Below are positions 1,262-15,500 of a stretch of DNA of 23,565 nt, piece after piece; the stretch's first letter is position 1, and every line of letters begins with the position of its first letter. The position numbers and the translations under genes are program-made. This stretch comes from Caecitellus pseudoparvulus (Eukaryota > Protista > Bigyra: Bicosoecida). A model generated the notes under the pieces. It saw only the letters and a list, made by a program, of their open reading frames with translations, had not been told where the DNA came from and searched no databases. Location of the stretch: NCBI GenBank assembly GCA_965644315.1, contig CBFFRQ010000135.1, positions 1-23,565 of the forward strand, read 5' to 3'.

Positions 1262-1272
1262 AAAACTTTCCA

Positions 1273-1460
1273 AATGTCAAGCTAATCACAAGTTGTGAAG
1301 TGCTAACATTGCCTAATCCAGGCGCTCGTGCACCCAAGTGTGGTGTTGCACAGTGCTTGCTGGTTGGGTGGTGCGCACCGGGGCGGGGTAGTGCGAATTC
1401 CGCACACCATCGCACCGTGGCTCCCAGTTTGCGCCCTCGGTCGGGGCATGCACCTGGGAT
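1273..1460 (+). promoter_or_regulatory. Conserved 5' leader of element A (candidate internal promoter or structured RNA)
   Basis: 55 bp identical to element B (1301-1355 = 4244-4298). Shared hairpin GTGCG-AATTC-CGCAC (1391-1405) and shared TGCACCTG(T)GGAT-like motif (1449-1460). Confidence 0.6.
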
Positions 1461-1489
1461 CGACATCAAAAGCATCATTGACAAGCATC

Positions 1490-3574
1490 ATGAACGCCCA
1501 AGTGGATCAAGTCCTGGGGGTCCTCTTCGTGGAGGGGTGCCTGAAGCGCAAGCAAGTGCTCGGCCCCAGAACAGGTGTCTTCACTGACATGCCACGTCGG
1601 GGTGCCGCACGCACCTTCGAGCTTGGAGGACCCCTGCCCAAGACTGATCATGATAGTTCATCTTCGGCACGGGACATGTGGCTCGAGGTCTATGGGGAAG
1701 CCGCCGAACGGCTGATCCCAGGGCTGAGTGCGGAATTCGGCAACGCCAATGCGGCCCTGCGCCAGGGACCCACCGGATCGCCAACCATCCTCGTCACGCT
1801 CGGAAGTGAGGGTGATTCACCAACAGTGGCACGTCAACTTCGCATTCTTGCTGCTCAAGAGGACGACTTCGCCATTCGAGTCGGCCAAGGTGGGTTCGTC
1901 GCCGTGGCCTACACCAACACCAAGCAGTTCGCATCGGCGAAGGCGAAAGTGAAGGTGAAGGCCCACCCCACCGCCATCCAAGTGGCCCACCAAGTGACCA
2001 AGGAAGCAACCGAAATCGCCTGCCAGTCAGGTGATGTTGCCAAGGTCATGTGCCTCGTTAGGTCCCACTTCGACCATGGCCCCGTGCCAGCCCAAGCCGT
2101 CCGTCCCAGTGTCAGACAATCCGTCCCCTCCGAGGGTGATGCACCTGTCGACACCAAGACACCATCGACCTGGACTGACACTCAGCTCGACAAGGCACCG
2201 AAGAAGAAGAAGACCCGTCGAGGCAAGCGAGGAAAGGGCAAGTCAGCCGGACGATCCCTCACCTTCGAGGACGTCTTCATCAAGAACGTCCGGCCACCTG
2301 CACCTCGACCAACCTCACCACCTGCCACCCAAGGCTCACCCAAAGATACCGTCACCACCCCTGTGGTGCATGCCATGTTGCCTTCATCAAGGGTGCAGCG
2401 GGGCGTCGACCGCAAGTGGCCGTCCCCCACCCCGTCGGGCGAGGCAAGCCCCGAGGTGCACCGGTATCGGCCGTCTGCAGCAGCAGCATGGGAGGTGATC
2501 ACAAGGGTGGTGCCTCTTCATGACAGTGTGCGGACACCCGAGCACCTGGCCGAGTACCCCATCAAGCCTGGCCCTCTGGCCGACCTGCTGTCATCGACCC
2601 ACGTGTACTCTAACGTGGGGGGGCGGGCCTGTGTCCAGGCCTGTCTCGAGACGGCAGCAGGGGAGAGGGTCTTCGAGGCTGGGGACCTCCTCCTACTCCA
2701 GCATGCAGCCACCATCAACGCTGCCCAGCTTGCCTTCAAGCACATGGTCAGGCAGCTGGAGGGGGTGGTCAGTGACTCGTCCAGCTCGGACATCATGGAC
2801 GTCGGCCAGAAGCCACCCTCCCCCTTCCGCTCAGACGGGCAACGGGTGGCCGTCTTCCGCAACATGCTGCACCAGCACTCGCCGGATGACACCTTCCTGG
2901 CCCCAGGTACACCACCAGTCCTGCTTCCCGGCCTGCACCTGCTCATCGACCGCATCAACCAAGGGTACCGTGCCCCAGCCGGGCATGATGACCTTGGCCA
3001 GGCCGGCGTCGACCCCAGCCAGGTTGATGAAGAGGGTGACCAAGAGGGGCACCTCGACGGAGTGCTGTATGCCTTCGCACTTCGAGAGGTGTGGACCGAC
3101 AACACGGCCCATCTGCAGCTCATCCTCGTCGACCATGATCGAGGCAAGCTGGTGCTGTGGAACCCCGACATCCCTGACCTCCATGACGAGCTGCCCCTGC
3201 ACAAGTGCATGACCCGGCTGGCAGCCGAAGGCATCAACGTCTTGTACCGGATCTGGACCACACCCGAGGCGGGCAGTCCAGCACCCTTCCGGGACAGGCT
3301 TCGAGGGGCACTCCAGTCTCTCCGAGATGACTTCCCCCCCCTGCCTCACAAGGCCACCGACGGCACCGTGCACCCCCAGACCCTCATCGCTGGCAAGGGC
3401 ACAAGGGTGGCCATGCCTCATGGGCGGATGACCCGACAGCAGGCCGCCACCCTGGAGGCTGAGGTCAAGGACCCCCTCAAGCGGCTGGTGCCTGAAGACG
3501 GCGAGGGTCGCCTGCCCAAGGTCAAGGATGTGCCCCACATCTCGATCGGGCAGATGGGTGGACGCCTGATGTAA
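1490..3574 (+). CDS. Element A protein (694 aa): unknown N-terminal domain, basic/Pro-rich linker, Josephin-like cysteine protease domain
   Basis: ATG at 1490 (MNAQVDQVLGVLFV) aligns with ATG 4429 of element B (MEAKTSQVLGALFV). Shared blocks include GPRTGxFTDMPRRGAARTFELGG, CVQACLETAAG, PPVLLPGLH, DHDRGxLVLWNPD and ELPxHKCM. The ORF-track start at 1328 is a GTG inside the leader. Confidence 0.88.
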   Translation: MNAQVDQVLGVLFVEGCLKRKQVLGPRTGVFTDMPRRGAARTFELGGPLPKTDHDSSSSARDMWLEVYGEAAERLIPGLSAEFGNANAALRQGPTGSPTILVTLGSEGDSPTVARQLRILAAQEDDFAIRVGQGGFVAVAYTNTKQFASAKAKVKVKAHPTAIQVAHQVTKEATEIACQSGDVAKVMCLVRSHFDHGPVPAQAVRPSVRQSVPSEGDAPVDTKTPSTWTDTQLDKAPKKKKTRRGKRGKGKSAGRSLTFEDVFIKNVRPPAPRPTSPPATQGSPKDTVTTPVVHAMLPSSRVQRGVDRKWPSPTPSGEASPEVHRYRPSAAAAWEVITRVVPLHDSVRTPEHLAEYPIKPGPLADLLSSTHVYSNVGGRACVQACLETAAGERVFEAGDLLLLQHAATINAAQLAFKHMVRQLEGVVSDSSSSDIMDVGQKPPSPFRSDGQRVAVFRNMLHQHSPDDTFLAPGTPPVLLPGLHLLIDRINQGYRAPAGHDDLGQAGVDPSQVDEEGDQEGHLDGVLYAFALREVWTDNTAHLQLILVDHDRGKLVLWNPDIPDLHDELPLHKCMTRLAAEGINVLYRIWTTPEAGSPAPFRDRLRGALQSLRDDFPPLPHKATDGTVHPQTLIAGKGTRVAMPHGRMTRQQAATLEAEVKDPLKRLVPEDGEGRLPKVKDVPHISIGQMGGRLM

Positions 3575-4014
3575 GTCACCTGTGGGGGCATACTCCCTGT
3601 GCCACACATGACTGAAGCTTTGTGTCGCGACCGACGCACATAGCTGACATCGGACATTGGAAAGTCCAACCCAACCTCACCATCACCAACCCAACATCGA
3701 TACCAACACATCAGGACTCGGCTCAGTGGAAGGGGAAGGCACTTGCAGCAAGATCTGTGAGGCCGCCCCCAAACCTGAGCCGAAGGGACAGCCGGGCTGG
3801 GTCGTGTGCTTGCATCTCAGCAACACCCAGTCCGTGTCGAGTCCATATCCTCCAGCCCACACCGCCACCCAAGCCAAGCAAGTCGGGTCTCCACCCCTGG
3901 ACATCGGACCGAGACGGACGAGACTGGACTGGACGGACAAGACAAGAGTGGACCGAGACCTGGACCTACACCTCAAGACCATCCCACCGGGGCGGGCGCT
4001 GAAGCGCCAAGACA

Positions 4015-4189
4015 GACGGCGACTTATACAACGGACACGAGTCTGTGCTAGTCGCAAAGCCGTGCAAGCGGTGCCGTCGTGGTGTCTGTGTCACTGCATT
4101 CTGTTGTGGCGCAGGTGGCACCACATGTCCAAGCCCAAGCTGTACCATGATGTAGCCTGCATGGAGGCAATCTGCAATGCATTGAGTAG
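4015..4189 (+). other. Conserved structured 3' terminus of element A
   Basis: Stems GACGGC/GCCGTC, ACGGAC-acga-GTCTGT, GCCGT-GCAA-GCGGT and GTGGTGTC/GGCACCAC. Motifs ATACAACGGAC, GCCCAAGCTGTA and TGCAATGCATT are shared with element B. Confidence 0.7.
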
Positions 4190-4217
4190 CTAACCCTAAC
4201 CCTAACCCTAACCCTAA
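4190..4217. repeat. Short interstitial telomeric tract C(TAACCC)4TAA separating elements A and B
   Basis: Read directly from the sequence; same orientation as the terminal telomere. Confidence 0.97.
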
Positions 4218-4403
4218 TGTCAACCTAATCATAGGTTGTGCATTGCTAACATTGCCTAATCCAGGCGCTCGTGCACCCAAGTGTGGTGTTGCACAGTGTT
4301 TGGGTTGGCAGTGCAGCGCGCGGGTGGCAGCTGTGCGAATTCCGCACGCCATCACACCAGCGCAAGCAGTGTGCACTCCCCGCGGGAGTCTGCACCTGTG
4401 GAT
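4216..4403 (+). promoter_or_regulatory. Conserved 5' leader of element B
   Basis: Homologous to 1273-1460. Hairpins CAACCTA-atca-TAGGTTG (4221-4238) and GTGCG-AATTC-CGCAC (4333-4347). Confidence 0.6.
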
Positions 4404-4428
4404 ACCTGCATCACGTTCCATCATCACC

Positions 4429-7400
4429 ATGGAAGCCAAGACAAGTCAAGTACTGGGTGCGCTCTTCGTGGATAAGTGCATTGCTGCGCGAGCAATGCGT
4501 GGACCAAGAACGGGCGGATTTACTGACATGCCGCGCCGAGGCGCTGCACGAACGTTTGAGCTTGGCGGAGTGCCCATCGACGAAGACCCTTCAACATCTT
4601 CATCAACAATCCGAGATTCCTGGCTTCAAGTCTTTGGTGAGGCGGCGGAGGCCCAGTTCCCTGGCATCTGTGCGGAAGTTGGGCGTGGTGCAGCGGCGTT
4701 GCGCCGCCCACAAGGAACCCCAGCTGCCCTGCTAGTCTCGCTTGGCGGAGGAAGTGCCAGCGCAGAGCTGGCACGGAGCATACGCGAAGCAGCAGCACGT
4801 GAGGACGACTTCACTGTGCGCCTTGGACGAGGTGGCTTCATGGCTGTGGTGTTTCCAGACACACGCCAGTTCGCCAACGCCAAGGCCAAGGTGCAGGTGA
4901 CTGCCTCGGCCCCAGTGCTCAAGGCGGCCCACCTCCTGATGCCCCAAGCCACGAAGATTGCTGTTGAGACAGGTGACGTAAGCTCAGTCGTGAAGCTCGT
5001 CAAGTCCCATCTTCATGGCCACTCGCCGCCTGCTCGTCAAGACCGCCACTTCGTCCGACATTCCGTCCCCGTCAAGGGCGACGCCGCTGTCGACAAAGTG
5101 AACCGGCCTGCTCCACCCAAGCCTGCCCACACTGCTCATCATGTGCCAGGCAAGCGCAAGAAGGTACGCCGAGGACAGCGCTCGAAGTCTTCGAAGCCAT
5201 CCAATGTCGTGCCAGGACGAACGTTCGCTGACCTCTTCAAGACTCCCCCGTCCGAGCCCTCAGCAAGCCGACGCCCCTTCCGTACAGTGATGCCTGCCCC
5301 CACCACTTCACCGCGACCCACGACGGAGGTTGTCCTTCCATCCTCTCGGGTGCGCACTGGGGCTAGCACGCGATGGGACCAACCGCCAACTGCTGAGCAA
5401 GACTCAAAGCAACAACACCATGCCCAGTCAGCAGCCCAACCCGCTCAGGCACCCAGCACTGAAACGGCCAGGACTTTGTTTGTTGGTGCAGACAAGCCAA
5501 GTGTCAAGTCTGAACCGCAGGCATGCGACACGTTGGACATGCCAGACTCATCACCACCCTCCCCAGGAATCGTTGAAGTCGTTCGGATGGAAGACTGCAG
5601 CAGGCTCCCAGCGGATCTCCCAAGACACAGAATCCCAACTGGGTCCCCGCTGGAACGCCTCCTTGCATCAAGCACAGTAGCTGGCAACCTTTCCGAGCGC
5701 CACTGTGTGCAAGCATGTCTGGAAACTGCAGCGGGTGCTCAGGTGCTGGAGCCCGAGGATCTTCTCCTCCTCCAACACGCAGCCACAGTGGAAGCAGCGC
5801 AACGCGCATTCAAAACCCTGCGCAAGCGAGAGGCTGCAGCCCTGTCTGACTCGTCCAGCTCGGATGTCCAGTGCCTGGCGCCGACTAGAGGCGTGGCCTC
5901 TTCGGATCCCGAGGACCAGCTAGCAGCATTGGCCCGACTGCTGTACCGGTTCACTCCGGATGACTCGCTGCTGCAGCCCACGTCTCCCCCAGTGCTTCTG
6001 CCAGGTCTCCACATGCTGCTGAACCGTATCAATGTTGGGCATGAAGACCTGCATGGCGGGAACAAGCACCATGGCGGTGTGAGTCCACAAGCGGTTGTGG
6101 ACGAGGACGAGCAAGAGCGGTACTTCCATGGCGTCCACTTCGCCTTTGCTCTCCACCGGCCCCAACAAGTCCACGCTGCCCACCTGACTCTCATACTGGC
6201 TGACCATGACCGTGGAGTCCTTGTCCTATGGAACCCAGACACACCTGATGCATGCACTGAGCTGCCCATGCACAAGTGTATGCAGAGACTCTACGATGAC
6301 GCAGTGGACATGGTGTACAGAGTGTCGGCAACCCCCCACACCGGGAACCCAGTCCCTCTTTGTGACAGGATCCGAGACATATTCCACAGTCTGCGCCAGT
6401 CCTTCCCTCCCCTTCCCTTTGTGGACCACGAGGGGGCTGTCCACCTCAAGACGTTCATCGCGGGGAAGTCTACCAGGGTCACCATTCAAGCAGGCCGGCT
6501 CACTCGAGCACAGGCCTCTGCAGCAAGTGAGGCAAAGGAGCGCGACCCTCTGTTCCAACTCATTCCATCAGACGAGGATGCCATGCCCCCGAGGTGGGAG
6601 CAGAGTCCGTACACACCAGTGGGAAAGTCCAGCAGCATCCCAGTGTCGCTCGTGTCATGGAATGTTGCTGGGTCGTGTGGCCGCAACCTGCACAAGGTTC
6701 TCATCTGCGCCCAGTCTGTGTGCCTCCGTTCATCCAGACTGGTCCTCTGCCTCACGGAACCTGGTGGCCACGGCACACTTGACTCGGAAGTCATGGGGCT
6801 CCAATGTTTCAGGCCCTCCCCCCCAGATCGTCCACCCGGTCGCAGTGAAGTTGCGCTTCTGGTCGACCGTCGTCTACGCGCCACGCAGATAGTCAACCTT
6901 GGACTCGATGGGCGCTGTGTGGTCGCCTGCTCCATCCCCATGAAGCCAAGGCCCCTTGCTGTTATCGCGGCCTACGTGCCCAACTGGCACACGGCCCAGC
7001 GGAAGAAGCCACTTGCAGACCCAGACACTAAGCTGCCCCACCGCCAAGAGGTCTGGGAGCAGCTGGCCAACGCTGTAAAAAGTCTGCGAACCACGCATAT
7101 GATCTCCCTCATGGGGGACCTCAACTGCCATCCTGGTGATGGCGGACTTCCTGCTTGGGACGCAACATGCTGGCAGAACCGGACCGATGTCGCTGACCCC
7201 ATCCCAGATGTCAAGGAGCTCGCAATCGTGTGCGAGCATGGTAACCTCGAGCCAGCCGGGCTCGCCGGGTGCTCCACCCATGCCACGAACGGCAGAGCCC
7301 TGGACCACATCCTTGTCTGCCCACTGCTCAAGGCCCAGGTCAAGGTGCCACACACAGTGACGACAACCTTCTCCAGTGCAGGCAAGCAGAATCCGGAGAA

Positions 7401-8199
7401 GTCGATCCTGAGTGACCACTACCTCCTGTCAGCAACAGTCCAAGTTGTGATCCCTCCACGGCCAAAGGGTGCCCGGCATGCCCACTCTTCCTTCTCTGTG
7501 CCGCCATGGTGGGCATCATCTACACGTGAAGGGCGCAGGGCACAGACCTTGCACAGGCGGCTGCTTGACTCATCCATCACTGGTGCCGCATCCCCCCCAC
7601 CCGGCCAAGCTGCAGACACCCTGCTGTCAGGCCTGGATGATTTGGTTGCCGACGCTGCCCGACAAGCCCATGCCAAGTGCAAAGTTGTGGCACCCCCGCT
7701 GCTTCAGGCCCTTGCCGACATTCGCACCCTCAGCTCTGTCAAGAAGCGGATGACAGTGAGGACAGGGCGGATCAAGAAGCAACTCCGCAAGCTTCATCGA
7801 CGCCGGCACCTTCTTCAGCATAGCCAGTCACCCCATGCCCCAGCTGACCTACGTTGTGCGGATGAACGAAAGCACATGCTCATGGAGGACCTTGCTGCCA
7901 CCCATGTTGAAAGGAAGAAGGCGATGCGCAAGTGTACTCGGCTGGTTGCCAAGAAACACAAGGCCGCCATGTTCCAAGTCCAGCAGCGCATCCGGGACCT
8001 TGCCCGGCTTGACCCCTTCACTGCTCACCTGCATGTGCGGAAGCTGTCCGGCAGAAGGAGGAAGGGCACTTCGTCGTCCATCCAGTCAGTCATGGACGAC
8101 AGCGGCACCCTCATCACAGACCCATCACAAGTGCGGGCTGTGGTCAGGGACCAGATGGCCCAGATCATCAGCCCCCTCCACGGCAAGTCGTGTCCCTGA
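4429..8199 (+). CDS. Element B 5' ORF (1256 aa): unknown N-terminal domain, Josephin-like protease, APE-type endonuclease, helical linker
   Basis: APE/EEP motifs in canonical order: SWNVAG, LCLTEP, VALLV, AAYVPN, GDLN, LDHILV, SDH. The C-terminus IQSVMDDSGTLITDPSQVRAVV resembles the LINE pre-RT linker motif. ATG is in context ACCATGG. Confidence 0.92.
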   Translation: MEAKTSQVLGALFVDKCIAARAMRGPRTGGFTDMPRRGAARTFELGGVPIDEDPSTSSSTIRDSWLQVFGEAAEAQFPGICAEVGRGAAALRRPQGTPAALLVSLGGGSASAELARSIREAAAREDDFTVRLGRGGFMAVVFPDTRQFANAKAKVQVTASAPVLKAAHLLMPQATKIAVETGDVSSVVKLVKSHLHGHSPPARQDRHFVRHSVPVKGDAAVDKVNRPAPPKPAHTAHHVPGKRKKVRRGQRSKSSKPSNVVPGRTFADLFKTPPSEPSASRRPFRTVMPAPTTSPRPTTEVVLPSSRVRTGASTRWDQPPTAEQDSKQQHHAQSAAQPAQAPSTETARTLFVGADKPSVKSEPQACDTLDMPDSSPPSPGIVEVVRMEDCSRLPADLPRHRIPTGSPLERLLASSTVAGNLSERHCVQACLETAAGAQVLEPEDLLLLQHAATVEAAQRAFKTLRKREAAALSDSSSSDVQCLAPTRGVASSDPEDQLAALARLLYRFTPDDSLLQPTSPPVLLPGLHMLLNRINVGHEDLHGGNKHHGGVSPQAVVDEDEQERYFHGVHFAFALHRPQQVHAAHLTLILADHDRGVLVLWNPDTPDACTELPMHKCMQRLYDDAVDMVYRVSATPHTGNPVPLCDRIRDIFHSLRQSFPPLPFVDHEGAVHLKTFIAGKSTRVTIQAGRLTRAQASAASEAKERDPLFQLIPSDEDAMPPRWEQSPYTPVGKSSSIPVSLVSWNVAGSCGRNLHKVLICAQSVCLRSSRLVLCLTEPGGHGTLDSEVMGLQCFRPSPPDRPPGRSEVALLVDRRLRATQIVNLGLDGRCVVACSIPMKPRPLAVIAAYVPNWHTAQRKKPLADPDTKLPHRQEVWEQLANAVKSLRTTHMISLMGDLNCHPGDGGLPAWDATCWQNRTDVADPIPDVKELAIVCEHGNLEPAGLAGCSTHATNGRALDHILVCPLLKAQVKVPHTVTTTFSSAGKQNPEKSILSDHYLLSATVQVVIPPRPKGARHAHSSFSVPPWWASSTREGRRAQTLHRRLLDSSITGAASPPPGQAADTLLSGLDDLVADAARQAHAKCKVVAPPLLQALADIRTLSSVKKRMTVRTGRIKKQLRKLHRRRHLLQHSQSPHAPADLRCADERKHMLMEDLAATHVERKKAMRKCTRLVAKKHKAAMFQVQQRIRDLARLDPFTAHLHVRKLSGRRRKGTSSSIQSVMDDSGTLITDPSQVRAVVRDQMAQIISPLHGKSCP
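6643..7440 (+). other. APE-like (EEP family) endonuclease domain
   Basis: N (6661, WN), E (LTE), Y (AYVP), D and N (GDLN, 7117), D (LDH), D and H (SDH, 7414-7419) are all present. Confidence 0.92.
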
Positions 8200-11135
8200 A
8201 GTTCGGACTGGGCCGGCTGCTCCCATCGGCCCCGACCCACATGTCGACTGAAGCCGCCTGGACCCCGAGCGTGGACCATATCCTGAAGAAGATCCAGTCC
8301 CTGAGCCTCCACCGCAACCCTGGCACAGGGCACTACCAGGCTGAGCATGTCAAGTATGCCAGCGAGGACTTCCGGAAGAGGTACGCTGCCGCTCTTCAAC
8401 AGGCCATCAGCACCGGTTCATGTCCAAGTCAGTACCACAGTGGGGTGGGGACACTCATCCCCAAGACCGCCAGCCAGGCCGGGAGGGTGCAGACATACAG
8501 GCTCATTGTCTGCCGTCCCCCCCAAGCCAAGCTCTTCTTCTCGGTCGTGGCCTCATGTGTCGAAGACTGGGTGCAGCACTGGATCTCACATGAGCAGGCA
8601 GGCTTCACCCATGCCCGCAACACCCACGAGCAGATCCTGGCCTTGCAGGAGGTGTCCACTGCCCACCTGCGCGCCAAGCCCACTGCCAGTGTCCTTGTCC
8701 TTTTCGTGGACTTCAAGAGTGCCTTTGACACTGTCAGCCACGAAGCGATACTCGAGATCCTCGAGTCAGCAAGCCTCCCACAGCCCCTGCTCAGCTGCGT
8801 GAAGGACTACATGCAGCGCGCCACAGTGGCCATTCACACTGGCCATGGTCTTTGCGACCCCCTCCCAGTCACCAACGGGGTCCCCCAGGGTGGCGCACTG
8901 TCGCCTCTGTTGTTCAAGGTGGCTATTGATGTGCTCTCTCAACGCCTGAGAGAGCTGCCAAGTCAGGGAGTGTCAGGGGCAGGAGTGCCGACACCCCGCG
9001 GCCACGTCACGCATACGCTCTATGCGGACGATCTTGCTTGCCTCGCCACCACCCCTGCTGCCCTCCATCGGATGTTCCTTGAAGTCAAGGCCCTGGGCAG
9101 CCGGGTGGGCTTGGCCATCAACCCGCGCAAGTCCGGGGTCATGGTCCTCACCGGGGCGCAACAGGTCAATGGGGTGTCAGCCACGGAGCGGCGGAAGCTC
9201 ATCTGGCGGTCCCGCTGGCTGAGGTCAGGGCAGTCCATGAAGGTCAAGGGGACACCCATCCAACGCACGAGCACCTACTCGTACTTGGGTGTCCCCCTGT
9301 CTGAAACTGTCAGCCGAACCCGACTGCTTGCCACGAGGCAGGCCACTCTGTCCTGCACTCGGGCTGGGTTCGGCTGCGGTGCCCTCCTCAGTAGTGCGTG
9401 GCTGAGTCCGATCCTGAAGCAGCGGATCGGCACTGCCTCCATCAACAGTGCCGCCGACTACATCTTGGCGTCCCAGGTCAGCAACTCGGTGCTACCTTTG
9501 CGGGACGTCGATCGTGGACTTGCCATCGCCTTCAGCAAGGCCCAGCTGGGGATGCAAAGCTCGCTAGCACGTATGCACAACTATGCAAAGCTTGCTGTGT
9601 GCGGCGTCTTGCCAACACACATCCGGGCGACGAAACTCCGCAGCATTATCTTCATGAAGCTGCTGAAGAATGTCCAAGTGCCCACCCCCATGGCCAAGGC
9701 GCTGTCCATCAGCCTGCGCCAAGCCCTGGACCTGCTGCCCTCCCCCCTGGACATGGCCAGCATCTTCCTGGCCAATGTCCGCCTCGACAGGCCAGGCGCT
9801 GGAGGCATCCCAGATCCATGGGCCTTACACGGTCTACTCGACCTCTGGCTCCTTGGATGCCTCCCTGACCGCGCACGCCTGGAGGCTGTGTGCCTGGAGC
9901 CGCCGCCTGACTCTGCCCCAGACACACACGGGGTCGACATCACCGCTGGGATGGACCCCGCCCCCCCCAAGATCCAGCTGCTTGGACTCGCGGCAGCGGA
10001 GTCCTCAGATCTGTCGGCTGCCCCCCAGTTCCCGGACACCACCCCCTGGGCCACTCGGCAACGCGTCGTCGCCTCCTTCCTTCATGTGGCCCAGACGGTC
10101 AAGTGCGGTGCAGTTGGCTACACTCCCACGGGGGAGATGAAGGCCACCAGGCGTCCGAAGGAGTACCACATCGGTGTGGGTGCTCGCTTCTTCGCCTGGC
10201 TGCACCCGATCCCTTCCTCTGTGAACCCAGTCTTCTGGGTCCACGAAGGCGATCAGGAGAGACGTGTGAAGGTGCACCTGTGGCAGACGCTTCAAGTGTT
10301 CAACGGGGATGACACCCCGACACTGTTCAGCGCCTGCCCCCTGTGCCACAGCGTCTCCTGGTGCAGCCTGCAGGAGCACGTCCTTCTTGACTGCCCCCAC
10401 CACGCCCTGGTCCCTGCGAGAAGGTCCGCCCTGTCAGAGGTGCGGAACCTCCTGTCCAGATCCAATGATGCAGTGAGGGGGTCGCCAACTGCCAGTACCT
10501 CGAAGTACCCCCCACTGCTGGATGCTGTTGTCCACGCCGACGAAGGCCGCTTGTTGGGCCGCCCGTGTCGCCTGCTGCTGCTGCGACTGCTGCTGTGCGG
10601 CCAGTGGCCCCATCGGTGGGGCCAGCCTCCGGCACAACAGCCCTGGAGTCCCGAGGCAGCCGCGGTCCTGAGTAACCCCCATGTCACTCTCCGCGGCTCC
10701 TCGGGTCCACTCCGCCCCCCCAAGTACTGGCGCGAGGCCCTGGTAGCTGCCACGGGCCTCGCGGTATCTGCGTGGGACGCGGTGGTGACGTGCATGCTCA
10801 GCCTTACCTCTCGTGCCGACCGTCACATCCAGAGGCACGCCCGGTACCTCTGGTGGGCGGCGCATGGACGAACGTGTCCTCTCCCAGGTTACTCGGCTCC
10901 TGATCCGAGTACTGTGAGGAAGCATGTGCGGGACGTGAAGACGCGGCGCTTCGAGCGCACTTACTTCCCTGTCAAGTCCCCTCGTCGGCCGCCTCGCTCC
11001 TTCACGAGGCAGGCCACCTTGCTCGACTTCGGGCTGGCACGGCCGGAAGTCCACGAGGAACCTCCGGCACCGTCGATTTCATCCTCGGCGTCGTCCTCTG
11101 GGTCGTCCTTGAAGTGTCCATCTGACTCTGAGTAG
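8190..11135 (+). CDS. Element B 3' ORF: non-LTR reverse transcriptase with C-terminal CCHC zinc finger (first ATG 8241; may be translated as a fusion with the upstream ORF)
   Basis: RT motifs LIPK, YRLI, EQAGF, FVDFKSAFDTVSH, GVPQGGALSPLLF, LYADD (TAT at 9021), GLAINPRKS and YSYLGV. CPLC...HVLLDCP at ~10335-10397. Confidence 0.95.
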   Translation: MSLKFGLGRLLPSAPTHMSTEAAWTPSVDHILKKIQSLSLHRNPGTGHYQAEHVKYASEDFRKRYAAALQQAISTGSCPSQYHSGVGTLIPKTASQAGRVQTYRLIVCRPPQAKLFFSVVASCVEDWVQHWISHEQAGFTHARNTHEQILALQEVSTAHLRAKPTASVLVLFVDFKSAFDTVSHEAILEILESASLPQPLLSCVKDYMQRATVAIHTGHGLCDPLPVTNGVPQGGALSPLLFKVAIDVLSQRLRELPSQGVSGAGVPTPRGHVTHTLYADDLACLATTPAALHRMFLEVKALGSRVGLAINPRKSGVMVLTGAQQVNGVSATERRKLIWRSRWLRSGQSMKVKGTPIQRTSTYSYLGVPLSETVSRTRLLATRQATLSCTRAGFGCGALLSSAWLSPILKQRIGTASINSAADYILASQVSNSVLPLRDVDRGLAIAFSKAQLGMQSSLARMHNYAKLAVCGVLPTHIRATKLRSIIFMKLLKNVQVPTPMAKALSISLRQALDLLPSPLDMASIFLANVRLDRPGAGGIPDPWALHGLLDLWLLGCLPDRARLEAVCLEPPPDSAPDTHGVDITAGMDPAPPKIQLLGLAAAESSDLSAAPQFPDTTPWATRQRVVASFLHVAQTVKCGAVGYTPTGEMKATRRPKEYHIGVGARFFAWLHPIPSSVNPVFWVHEGDQERRVKVHLWQTLQVFNGDDTPTLFSACPLCHSVSWCSLQEHVLLDCPHHALVPARRSALSEVRNLLSRSNDAVRGSPTASTSKYPPLLDAVVHADEGRLLGRPCRLLLLRLLLCGQWPHRWGQPPAQQPWSPEAAAVLSNPHVTLRGSSGPLRPPKYWREALVAATGLAVSAWDAVVTCMLSLTSRADRHIQRHARYLWWAAHGRTCPLPGYSAPDPSTVRKHVRDVKTRRFERTYFPVKSPRRPPRSFTRQATLLDFGLARPEVHEEPPAPSISSSASSSGSSLKCPSDSE

Positions 11136-11491
11136 CGGGCGATGTGTGTAGAGCGCGGCGCGAGGCGGTGCAAGCTTACGGCGTGGCGTGGTGACAACCA
11201 CGGTCGTGGCTGAGCGAAGTGCGAGAGCAGGGTGATGTGATGTCCTTGATGAATGACGGAACCTGCGGAAAGTTGGAAGATGATGAAGTGAATATGTCCA
11301 GTATACTTACATGATGGCTCGGGGTCCACGTGCAGCCCGAGATAGATTCCTGTGACGGGGCGCGCGGAATTTGGCAGGGTGAACACGCGGGCGCGCGGGG
11401 CAACGTCGCAGGCGGGGCGCACAGGTCCTCAGGGCCTTGAGTGATGAGTCAGCTGGATTATCTGTGAAGAAAAGGAGGTGTTCTTGGTGTT

Positions 11492-12451
11492 CTTGGTGCG
11501 CGGGTGGCGTTGTTCCGGCGGTGCGCGCTGCTACCACCGGCGTGGTGCAGTGCAACACCGTCGTGAAACGCCACCCGAAGGCGGCCACTGCGGCTCAGGA
11601 CAGCGCGCAGTGGCCCCAGGCACACGTGCAGTGCCTGGCAAGGGCCAGGAGAAGCGGGGGGTTTCTGAATTATGAAGCGAAGTGTGGACTGGAACGAAGC
11701 AAGAGTGGGCCCGGCCCCCTCTGGCTCAGCCGACTGAGCCGAGAGGGCGCGGGCGGGGCAGTTCGACACGTATGGGCGGGCGCGGGCGCGCCCTAGCAAG
11801 CGGCGGCTCATACAACGGACGTATGTCCGTGATGGCTGCAGACCCACGAGAGTGGGAGCCGCTGTAGCGCTCCTGGTGTGCCTTGTGCACAGCAGCGAAC
11901 GCTACATGTGATGCCCAAGCTGTATCGCGTGCAAGCGTGAAGGCGACATGCAATGCATTGAATGAACTAACCTTGGTGCGCGGGTGGCGTTGTTCCGGCG
12001 GTGCGCGCTGCTACCACCGGCGTGGTGCAGTGCAACACCGTCGTGAAACGCCACCCGAAGGCGGCCACTGCGGCTCAGTTCAGCGCGCAGTGGCCCCAGG
12101 CACACGTGCAGTGCCTGGCAAGGGCCAGGAGAAGCGGGGGGTTTCTGAGTTATGAAGCGAAGTGTGGACTGGGACGAAGCAGGAGTGGACCCGGCCCCCT
12201 CTGGCTCAGCCGACTGAGCCGAGAGGGCGCGGGCGGGGCAGTTCGACACGTATGGGCGGGCGCGGGCGCGCCCTAGCAAGCGGCGGCTCATACAACGGAC
12301 GTATGTCCGTGATGGCTGCAGACCCACGAGAGTGGGAGCCGCTGTAGCGCTCCTGGTGTGCCTTGTGCACAGCAGCGAGCGCTACATGTGATGCCCAAGC
12401 TGTATCGCGTGCAAGCGTGAAGGCGACATGCAATGCATTAAATGAGCTAAC
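11492..12451 (+). repeat. Two tandem 480 bp copies of the element B 3' end
   Basis: 11492-11971 versus 11972-12451. I count 9 substitutions and no indels. Each copy ends in CTAAC. Confidence 0.95.
11972..12446 (+). mobile_element. Element C: 5'-truncated 3' fragment of a B-type element
   Basis: Near-identical to the last 475 bp of B. Preceded by CTAAC(C) and followed by a telomeric tract in the same register as A and B. Confidence 0.72.
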
Positions 12452-12574
12452 CCTAACCCTAACCCTAACCCTAACCCTAACCCTAACCCTAACCCTAACC
12501 CTAACCCTAACCCTAACCCTAACCCTAACCCTAACCCTAACCCTAACCCTAACCCTAACCCTAACCTAACCTAG
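12447..12574. repeat. Interstitial telomeric tract, about 20 CCCTAA units, degenerating to CCTAA, CCTAG at the gene junction
   Basis: Perfect repeats 12447-12564, then CCTAA (12565-12569) and CCTAG (12570-12574). Confidence 0.97.
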
Positions 12575-15500
12575 CCAAGTCTGCGCCAGAGACGGAGTTG
12601 ATGAGCGAGCCGAACACGGCAAAGAATAGCAGTGCGTTCATGAGAATGGACACTTGGTCGTAGCAGAGGGCCATGCGGAGGGTCCACGAGCACAACAGGC
12701 GGAAGCCTGTGCCCAGCAACCCACATACCGAGCGCTGCCATCGCCCACATCTCCCCAGACAAGTCAAAGCCTCCGCTGGTCGATCTGCTTGGAGAGCTCT
12801 AGACAATGACGGAAGGCTGTCCACGCCTTCCCTTGCCAGCAGGAATGGGACTTCTTGCTTGGTGTGCTTATATCGCCACCCACACGACCTGCACGTGGCC
12901 CAGTGGTGTCTGTGCGCCAGAACGACATCAACTTTAACTCTTCGGTCAACTGCACAGTATCTGATGATGCGTGTTGGACAAGAAGTGTCGCAATTTTCCA
13001 TCACCTTTTGTACCTCTCGCCTGAAATGTCTATGAGAAGCCTTGGCTTCCATTGCCCTGAAGGTGCTTCGCTGCTGCAGCAGCTTCCTGCTGCTCTTGGA
13101 GCTCTTGCTACCAACTCTGTCTCGTCCAATTTTCATGGACTTCACACGTTCCATGCGTCTTGAGCTGCTTGACGGAGCAACTGAAACAAGTTCTTGTGTG
13201 CTGAGGCCCAATGCACGTGAACTCCTTGGCCCAAAAAGGCCCATTGCCATGTTCGGAGGCTGTACGGCAGCGAGAGAGGGGCTTGCCATTGTTGCGCTGC
13301 TCCTAGATCTAGCACTCTCTGGTGACCCTGATACCATTTCATCCAGATCGCCTGATGCAGAAGGCTCGGGCACAAGTGTCTTGGAGTGCGTGCCTGCCTT
13401 CTCTGAGTTGAAGGCCGTCGATGCCTTTCCACCACCACCAGGAACACCTGCTTGCACAAGAGATGGTTCGCTGCAACTCGAGAGTGAACTGTCCGACTCC
13501 ACAGAGAACCTCGCACTTGCAAAGAAGCCACCTACATCAGACTCGATGCTGCTGCTTGACTCGCAGCTGCTCTCCGGTGCAAGATGCTTCAGTGAGCTCA
13601 TGACGCTCCTACTTGACAGTCCTGCCCTTGTCAATCTTGCTGCTTTGAATGTGCGGCGCGATTCAGATGTATATCGCTCGGTGCTGCCCTTCTGCCGCAG
13701 AGTTGAGCGCATGCGCGGCCCTTCAGCACCGCCGTGGAAAGCTAGGACTGGAGCCGTCGATCCCCAACCACGCATGGTGGATGCTTGACCTACGGCAGGC
13801 TGTCCCCAGGACTGTGTTTGAGTTGCGTTTGAGCATTTGGTGTGCACCATACAGGAAGCTCGACGGACACGCCTTCTTGCTCGTCGCCTGGACGGGGGCC
13901 CCAGCATCTCAGGCCCATGTGCTGACTTCGACTGGGTTAACTGCGGTTTTGCCCTCGCAAAAGCATGCAGAGGGTTAGATGTGGCTGGTTTTCCATCTGT
14001 GATGCGTTCTTCGGTTCTGACGATTGATGAAAGTGCCATAGCAGGGCCCTTTTCCTGAACTGAGGCGGCCTCGCCACCCCCCCGCACATCGCCCTCTTGC
14101 CCTGCATCCCCCAACGCAGGTTGAGACGAACGCAGTGAGCCCGCCGTGATTGGTGCGGCGCCTTGGCCATCAGTAGTGCTCAACGTCTCCGTCAGCGACT
14201 CAGACATCAAAGGATGACCTTCCATGCAGGATTGCTGCCCAGATTTCGATTGGAGATCCTGGGTGCAGTGCGCTGAGACGGAGTGCCTTGCACCATCACC
14301 GACACTCAAGCCTTGAGCACTTGTGCCACACTCCCCTCTGTGTCTGGCAAGGGGGTTGACTCGGAACAGGGGATTCACATCGGAGGGTGGTTGCGTAGAG
14401 TCTGCAACCTCGGCTGCTTTATCGCTCCCTCCAAGCCCCAAGGCTCTTCCAACAAAGGAAAACGCAAAGGCTGGCTGCTTAGATGACCCTCCCACTGCTT
14501 TGGTTTGAGAAGTTTCACCAAGCACCGCCGCCTCTTGCCCCGTGTTCTTGCGTCGGTGCAGCACGGAAGTGCTGCAAGCCTCAGCCTGGTGCGTCACAGG
14601 CAGGGAAGCAGCGCGTTTTGAATCAGAGCCTGGAGCATGCTGCTCACGAGACAACACAGCAGTTTTCGCTCCACTTTGCCTTGTGTGGCTCGCTTCACTT
14701 TGGGAACTGCGGTCCGCCATTGGGCCAGCCCGTCGCCCTCGGGATGCCAGACTGCTTGGGAAGGCTTTCGGCTTGGTAATGCTCATTCGCCGGAGAAACG
14801 AATTGGAGGATTCAACTCGATGTTGAGCACCAGGTGTGTGAAAGGGATTTGGAAGGTGTGCTTGAGGTGGCAGTTCACGGGGCAAGTCACTCGGCTGGGG
14901 TTGAACTTTGGGTTGGGTTCGGGCGCTGCGAGGTAGTACTGCCGAAGGTTGCTTCACCTCGCGTGAAATGGTCTTGTCTTGAGAGTCTTCAACGGCTGTC
15001 TCCTGCTTGTTGGGGACTTCTGCTGTTTGATGCCTCAACGTTCGCCATCGGATTGCGCTCCTACTTCGAGGGCGATGTGACACCCCCGTCTCTCCTTCTG
15101 ACGAGCTGCAATCGTCAAACACTCCTTGGGCCTCCCCAGCAAGCGGGTACTTGTGGTTATCACGAAGTTTTCGCACGTCCTCTTCTATTCGCTCTGCGAG
15201 TTTCCTCTTTGCCTCTGCCCCGAAGCGGCCGGACTTCACAGCTCGAACCCAGTTCAGTGACACTTTAACCTCGCTATGGGGCCGCATCAAGGCCAGCAGG
15301 AATGCATAGAAGGACACAGCAAGACAAAGTAGCAGCGCCGAAAAGGTTGGTTGGTCCCTGAACACAGTCGCCAGCGCTGCGACCGCCATGCGCTGTGCAA
15401 ATTCTAGAATAGCCCAGAAATACATGGAACGTGTGTATGGCTTGTACAGCTTGCCGATCAGGGCGTGAATGAACGCAGCACGCTGGTGATCCTTGATGAG

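Follow-up and report, generated by a model that had tools for sequence, protein, structure and literature searches.

A predicted multi-helix RNA structure at the 3′ ends of telomere-embedded LINE units in Caecitellus pseudoparvulus

A head-to-tail array of element units at a chromosome end

The window, by which we mean the whole stretch of DNA analysed (23,565 nt), is a chromosome end that carries, in this order, the terminal telomere, unit A, telomeric repeats, units B and C, a second set of repeats, and a host reading frame. The terminal telomere, (CCCTAA)n, occupies positions 1–1261 with about 210 copies, and all features of the array are given on the + strand. The units are arranged head to tail, and the 5′ ends of all three face outwards. 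Unit A (1262–4189), which has ORF1 only and is likely a non-autonomous element, is separated from unit B by an interstitial telomeric tract of 4.7 repeats (4190–4217). Unit B (4218–11972) is a LINE in which ORF1 and an APE endonuclease make up one fused frame and the reverse transcriptase (RT) has a frame of its own. Unit C (11973–12446) is a 5′-truncated 3′ piece of the B family, followed by the proximal telomeric tract (12447–12571, about 21 repeats). The truncated C is joined to B through a single CTAACC (11967–11973) with no repeat tract after the B tail; this junction may reflect one telomerase-added repeat or a template jump.

Beyond the proximal tract, the minus strand carries a host frame of 3,665 codons, for which the organism-labelled match among 13 is a Cafeteria cadherin-domain protein (23% identity). 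This cadherin/IPT frame terminates within the telomeric tract (12561–12580), which suggests either a gene cut by a healed break or a gene that directly abuts the telomere. No tRNA was found. Element sequence is also present in marine sequencing runs; none of the 23 runs listed is an RNA data set, a fact that has no bearing on expression. In one of these, X3, the summed contig depth on A (3560–4190) is about 50 times that on the B-specific 5′ part, a figure that measures neither copy number nor expression and does not distinguish high copy from high expression.

The ORF1 of unit A encodes 694 amino acids from its first ATG (1490–3574). It is 43% identical to the N-terminal part of the B ORF1 and ends where the B endonuclease starts, so that unit A encodes neither endonuclease nor RT. 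It matches no Pfam family, and no homologue was found outside; among 1.84 billion representatives the sole match was a near-self fragment of 48 residues. The AlphaFold model of ORF1, built on a two-sequence alignment, has a pLDDT of 35 and is unusable. The C-terminal part of ORF1 (2900–3574 in A, 6000–6630 in B) displays a weak Atlas likeness (at most 0.76) to papain-like cysteine proteases (C58, C39), which we treat as a lead only.

In unit B, the fused ORF1 and APE-type endonuclease (PF03372, E = 1.3e-6) span 4429–8199, and the RT frame (PF00078, E = 8.6e-32), with a YADD motif and a C-terminal CCHC, spans 8190–11135 in the −1 frame relative to the ORF1–endonuclease. Both the endonuclease and the RT have their catalytic motifs. 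The fusion of ORF1 to an endonuclease is unusual for a LINE. The ORF1–endonuclease frame stops at 8197, and the RT goes on in the −1 frame, which has no stop from 8013 onwards; the change of frame in this region (8010–8199) may be due to programmed frameshifting, to an indel or to an error of the assembly. Since its RT is out of frame with ORF1–endonuclease, this copy of B may be inactive. In a tree of the 118 of 120 matches long enough to align, built without labelled clade references, the B RT is sister to one metagenomic protein, P0001 (support 0.99; deeper node 0.37). Searches of viral contigs with the RT and ORF1 loci returned no relative.

The 5′ ends of A and B (windows 1270–1390 and 4213–4330) match at 92% of positions across 90 bases; both form long G·U-rich hairpins, accompanied by a conserved GTGCG-AATTC-CGCAC hairpin. 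They have no match in Rfam, and a twister-like reading of these ends was dropped, as they fold as long hairpins. Contigs of 7264, 4262 and 2608 bases from runs X5 and X9 have only this 5′ motif in common with A and B, so more element families exist.

Architecture and comparative support of the 3′ tail

Each unit ends in a structured tail (3991–4183 in A, 11775–11959 in B and 12255–12439 in C). The fold starts upstream of the interval given for it in the initial annotation, and in A it runs from about 3991 to 4183, or roughly 190 nt. In unit A, it begins with hairpin P0 (3995–4008), followed by the outer stem P1 (4015–4020/4073–4078), which encloses a 4-bp P2 (4021–4024/4050–4053), the inner hairpin P3 (4031–4046) and P4 (4059–4072), a GNRA hairpin with a GCAA loop. 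Next come P5a (4079–4086/4117–4124) and its extension P5b (4087–4113), in which 11 of 12 positions are paired in A. The distal part consists of an invariant 12-mer, GCCCAAGCTGTA (4133–4144), the variable hairpin P6 (4145–4164), AGGC (4165–4168) and an invariant 11-mer, TGCAATGCATT (4173–4183). A variable 6-nt spacer (4184–4189) leads from the 11-mer to the telomeric repeat; in B the spacer is 7 nt long and is followed by one CTAACC (11967–11972). In each of the three units, 6–7 bases thus separate the tail from CTAACC, and none of the tails is followed by poly(A) or an A-run.

The outer stem, the inner hairpin, the GNRA hairpin and the next stem of the initial annotation all lie where it had put them, and so do the 12-mer, the variable hairpin, AGGC and the 11-mer near the telomeric repeat, while P0, P2 and the P5 extension had been missed. 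Its statement that the structure ends all three units is correct as to presence and overstated as to independence: B and C are 98% identical, with 9 differences in 481 bases, and therefore represent one family, so the window holds two independent versions of the tail. No fourth copy was found in the window. Upstream of the tail, the 3′ UTR of B (11492–11770) contains more GC-rich hairpins, absent from A, and in other runs several variant sequences occur immediately before 11972. Apart from the tail, A and B have no 3′ UTR sequence in common (best match 11 nt, E = 0.11).

The claim that sequence changes while pairing is kept is borne out by the comparison of A with C. All 39 pairs of the seven helices are canonical in both, with 23 unchanged, 6 changed on one side, 10 changed on both sides and none broken. 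When the same 26 substitutions were placed at random under three transition-bias settings, all pairs were kept in 0 of 200,000 placements in each setting, and 11 to 15 pairs were broken on average. Unit B breaks one P5 pair (C·A at 11899). Seven G·U pairs and the GNRA loops lie on the + strand, and the opposite-strand fold of A loses P2–P5, which indicates that it is the sense RNA that folds. From these comparisons, the 3′ tail of A, B and C is predicted to form a conserved RNA fold.

The helices were originally drawn from A and C themselves, which makes variants from outside the window the fairer test. A-type variants come from contigs of runs X3, X5, X9 and X17 (40 of 63 variant rows over the whole stretch). 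Among the rows listed there are eight A-type substitutions in 4015–4183 (X5, X9, X17), and four of them keep or improve a pair: U-A becomes U·G at 4050, a mismatch becomes U-A at 4105, U·G becomes U-A at 4111, and G-C becomes G·U at 4129, in a possible closing stem. Three more (4026, 4039, 4101) fall at unpaired positions, and the last, at 4015, disrupts the terminal (first) pair of P1; of the two X9 contigs, one carries it.

A third version of the tail, compared here against that of B, occurs in X9 and X6, which belong to two studies. It has no listed change across 11703–11865 and thereafter a different P5 and P6. Its P5 extension, read by hand, consists of 12 consecutive pairs capped by a UUCG loop, with four two-sided changes relative to A. 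Its P5a would be fully paired as well, if the four unlisted bases of the 3′ strand correspond to the four unlisted differences in X6. Its P6, listed by the tool as a loose end and likewise read by hand, is a different 7-bp hairpin followed by AGGC, 4 nt and TGCA. The third version (X9, X6 and, at low depth, X3) is B-like until the P1/P5 boundary at 11865 and A-like from there on, as if modules had been exchanged between families at a helix boundary.

Folding energetics differ between the two parts of the tail. The P0–P5 domain is more stable than its shuffles (z of −3.0 in A and −5.1 in C), whereas the region 4133–4189 is no better than shuffles (z of +1.4 and 0.0); the interval of the initial annotation, folded whole, gives −0.84 for A and −4.2 for C. 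With A folded alone, pair probabilities in P0–P5 are 0.79–1.0 apart from one pair at 0.24. With C folded alone, P1 has a pair probability of about 0.3, and that of P6 is about 0 in both. The consensus fold lies about 5 kcal/mol above the minimum in A and in C. The case for P6 is therefore comparative only. That P6 nonetheless pairs in three sequences suggests that tertiary interactions or contacts with a protein keep its invariant flanks in place.

The junctions are more conserved than the helices: 48 of 57 junction bases are identical, as against 52 of 78 paired positions. The invariant junction elements are AUACA, GCARA, GCCCAAGCUGUA, AGGC and UGCAAUGCAUU. Possible long-range pairs between junctions (UACA/UGUA, UGUA/UGCA, GCC/GGC and GCA/UGC) are present in A and C and show no covariation; as they do not vary, they cannot be ranked. 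Base pairing between the 3′ tail and the 5′ ends was rejected, as its values (−12.9 to −16.9) stay within the background, for which 32 windows gave minima of −17.1 and −19.1.

The spacer after the 11-mer is 6–7 variable bases long in the window and 3 in one X9 tail, in each case followed by telomeric repeat, and the same order of spacer and repeat is found in X3, X5, X6 and X9, with more spacer variants in X3, X5 and X9. Between B and C, 2 of 7 spacer bases have changed as against 7 of 474 elsewhere (Fisher p = 0.006, a test that rests on two changes). Truncated copies are anchored at the 3′ end; they include C, a 58-nt piece that starts at 11915 after CCCTAA (X9), and an A-type piece that starts at 4150 (X9). 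One X9 sequence, a loose end before 11915, adjoins CCCTAA without the 11-mer, and another X9 tail has the 11-mer and lacks AGGC plus 4 nt, so the full tail may not be needed by every telomeric insert.

Known structured RNAs and related telomeric elements

Three scans of Rfam 15 at E up to 10, covering hammerhead, HDV, twister, pistol, hairpin, SRP, the R2 element and other families, gave weak unrelated matches far below thresholds (best 21.7 bits). The Rfam scan proposed in the initial annotation thus brought no family near its gathering score, and its remark that this is not a known ribozyme holds also for hatchet and twister-sister, the published conserved bases of which are not reproduced. 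The hatchet ribozyme is described as having conserved C20–A22, U28–G31, G63–G66 and A73–A75 around an asymmetric P2–P3 loop (PMC6561176; the comparison also drew on PMC4604424). The tail resembles the P3–L3–P4 arm of hatchet in having YAUAC beside a hairpin and GCAR after a stem. U28–G31 and A73–A75 have no counterpart, as the tail either lacks the equivalent positions or has them paired in its covarying outer stem, and membership was rejected. In twister-sister, the account cited places A8, G59 and U61 in L1 and a hairpin G29-UGCAAGU-C37 with G35 in SL4 (PMC5660989). GCUCAU, GCARA and UGCAA of the tail occur in the order expected of a permuted twister-sister; this candidate too was rejected, since the place of G59 is taken by A in unit A, that of A8 by G in B and C, and that of G35 by U throughout.

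No homologue of the tail was found beyond near-identical organisms among viral contigs, metagenome contigs and prokaryote genomes. A pattern scan of viral contigs gave 0 matches; all 16 of 16 loci matched in metagenome contigs were attributed to chance, having neither the upstream fold nor a telomeric context, and so was the one match (1 of 1) in prokaryote genomes. The tail is a real RNA structure that has apparently gone undescribed so far.

Its closest known counterparts, likewise structured sense RNAs at the extreme 3′ end of non-LTR elements, occur in stringent LINEs and their partner SINEs (ZfL2-1/2, UnaL2) and in the R2 3′ UTR. The ORF2 protein of stringent LINEs is described as binding its cognate 3′ stem-loop (PMC4176376), and the R2 protein as binding a multi-helix 3′ UTR, with helices H0–H5 in R2Bm (PMC11194090). 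What marks such tails was found here as well: a conserved structure on the sense strand, at the 3′ end of an APE/RT element and common to a non-autonomous partner. As in stringent LINE/SINE pairs, the RT-less partner has kept the tail without any other likeness in the 3′ UTR. Unlike the stringent LINE and R2 tails, the present one has no sequence or Rfam match, exceeds a single stem-loop and is directly followed by telomeric repeats; and unlike a SINE, the partner encodes ORF1.

In layout, the array resembles MoTeR1/MoTeR2 of Magnaporthe oryzae, for which head-to-tail arrays in (TTAGGG)n with 5′ ends towards the chromosome end, repeat spacers of half to more than 20 repeats, an RT-less partner and truncated copies are described (10.1101/845669). 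In that account, the RT-less partner has its 5′ and 3′ ends in common with MoTeR1. MoTeR1 has a restriction-like endonuclease in place of the APE domain seen here, and MoTeR2 has an unrelated filler with a common 77-bp end, whereas the partner in the window codes for ORF1 and has a diverged, covarying tail of 190 nt.

TRAS1 and SART1 of Bombyx mori, telomeric LINEs of the R1 clade, are, like unit B, LINEs in telomeric repeats with an APE endonuclease. Their endonuclease is described as nicking the telomeric repeat and their 3′ UTR as being recognised in trans; the SART1 proteins mobilise their own 3′ UTR in trans into telomeric repeats, and a repeat-like RNA has been proposed to anneal to the target (PMC7265360). 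SART1 needs poly(A) for accurate initiation, in contrast to the poly(A)-less tails here. Another parallel is with the Drosophila telomeric array, in which HeT-A, a Gag/ORF1-only element, is described as relying on the RT of TART/TAHRE (PMC5537684). In Drosophila, such arrays stand in for telomerase repeats and terminate in oligo(A), whereas here long canonical repeats cap the end; no related protein was found for ORF1. An exact-word search of the open literature returned no description of a marine protist array in which an APE endonuclease is combined with a MoTeR-like layout and a HeT-A-like, ORF1-only partner.

Function of the tail

The tail is probably a cis signal by which the RT recognises and positions its template, used in trans by unit A. 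A transcript would run through the tail into CUAACC repeats, and a B-type RT would bind the tail, in which the helices would form a scaffold free to drift in sequence and the invariant junction bases would be the likely contacts. The CUAACC end of the RNA would then pair with a TTAGGG 3′-OH, which could be supplied by an APE nick or by an existing chromosome end, in place of poly(A). Copying would begin at inexact positions immediately 3′ of the 11-mer and would in many cases stop early; imprecise starts would yield the variable spacers, and early stops the 5′-truncated copies. Unit A would retain the tail for being copied in trans. RT recognition had been proposed in the initial annotation, and it is partly supported by truncations that keep the 3′ end, by the missing poly(A) and by the RT-less unit A, in which precisely this part of the 3′ UTR has been retained and the remainder has diverged. 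With 3′ UTRs that are unrelated elsewhere, the tail of A appears to be under selection, which counts for this reading. Against it count the size of the structure, as about 190 nt, seven helices and many invariant bases exceed the single stem-loop of stringent LINEs, and the fact that P6 and the distal tail are not thermodynamically favoured alone. The B/C duplication, moreover, could have arisen by recombination or break-induced replication in place of reverse transcription, processes that have been described for MoTeR arrays (10.1101/845669).

A terminator, an exonuclease block or a poly(A) substitute would be conserved just as well: in this alternative, the tail serves to form or protect the 3′ end of the RNA, and RT recognition is located elsewhere. 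We regard this as unlikely to be the whole explanation. A compact multi-helix fold at the extreme end would suit such a role, as would the lack of an A-run behind the tails of A, B and C, and the long intact ORF1s of A and B need a stable, translated RNA. However, the hypervariable spacer beside the repeats is more in keeping with priming at inexact positions than with a fixed end, the sequence shows no U-rich loops such as a triple helix would have, and genomic copies without poly(A) do not prove transcripts without poly(A). A role in 3′-end formation, stability or translation is compatible with RT binding, and the tail may do both.

The head-to-tail array raises another alternative, as its transcripts need cutting: a self-cleaving ribozyme of a new class could cut read-through RNA at or just after its own 3′ end. 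The unit RNAs would then end in their own CUAACC primer, and the LINE and its ORF1-only partner would share a telomerase-template-like end. The multi-way junction, the invariant unpaired junction bases (48 of 57), the GNRA loops, possible invariant long-range pairs such as UACA/UGUA and the partial likeness to the hatchet P3–L3–P4 arm and to the twister-sister motif order are features that such an RNA might have. On the other side, no Rfam ribozyme is matched at E up to 10, key bases of hatchet and twister-sister are missing, and the candidate long-range pairs lack covariation. Full-length copies retain the whole fold, which is hard to square with an internal cut; as whole tails are copied, a ribozyme would have to place its cut no further upstream than its own 3′ end. 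Self-cleavage, which we consider quite improbable, would if true define a new ribozyme class.

Still less probable is a role in dimerisation, in which the 11-mer palindrome AAUGCAUU, presented by the helices, would pair two element RNAs for co-packaging of A and B or for template jumps of the RT. The 11-mer is the most conserved part of the tail, is kept in a further X9 tail and forms an A × C duplex of −9.4 kcal/mol; the third version, in which B-like sequence gives way to A-like sequence at the P1/P5 boundary, and the single repeat at the B–C junction would both fit. Yet an 8-nt palindrome is expected by chance in about 2 of 100 11-mers (by arithmetic), it shows no covariation, and P0–P5 would be left unexplained. 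Conservation at the DNA level, with an incidental fold kept as a promoter of the downstream unit, as a protein site or as a by-product of gene conversion, would agree with the near-identity of B and C and with the promoters described in the HeT-A and TAHRE 3′ UTRs (PMC5537684), but is largely refuted by the two-sided changes, the G·U pairs, the strand asymmetry and the pairing of the third version, all of which indicate RNA, and is the least credible of these explanations.

Natural variants of this large poly(A)-less tail separate the scaffold from the invariant bases, so that binding and priming are open to direct tests. Those who build tools for site-specific insertion could also take an interest in an RT signal that is independent of poly(A) and targeted to TTAGGG.
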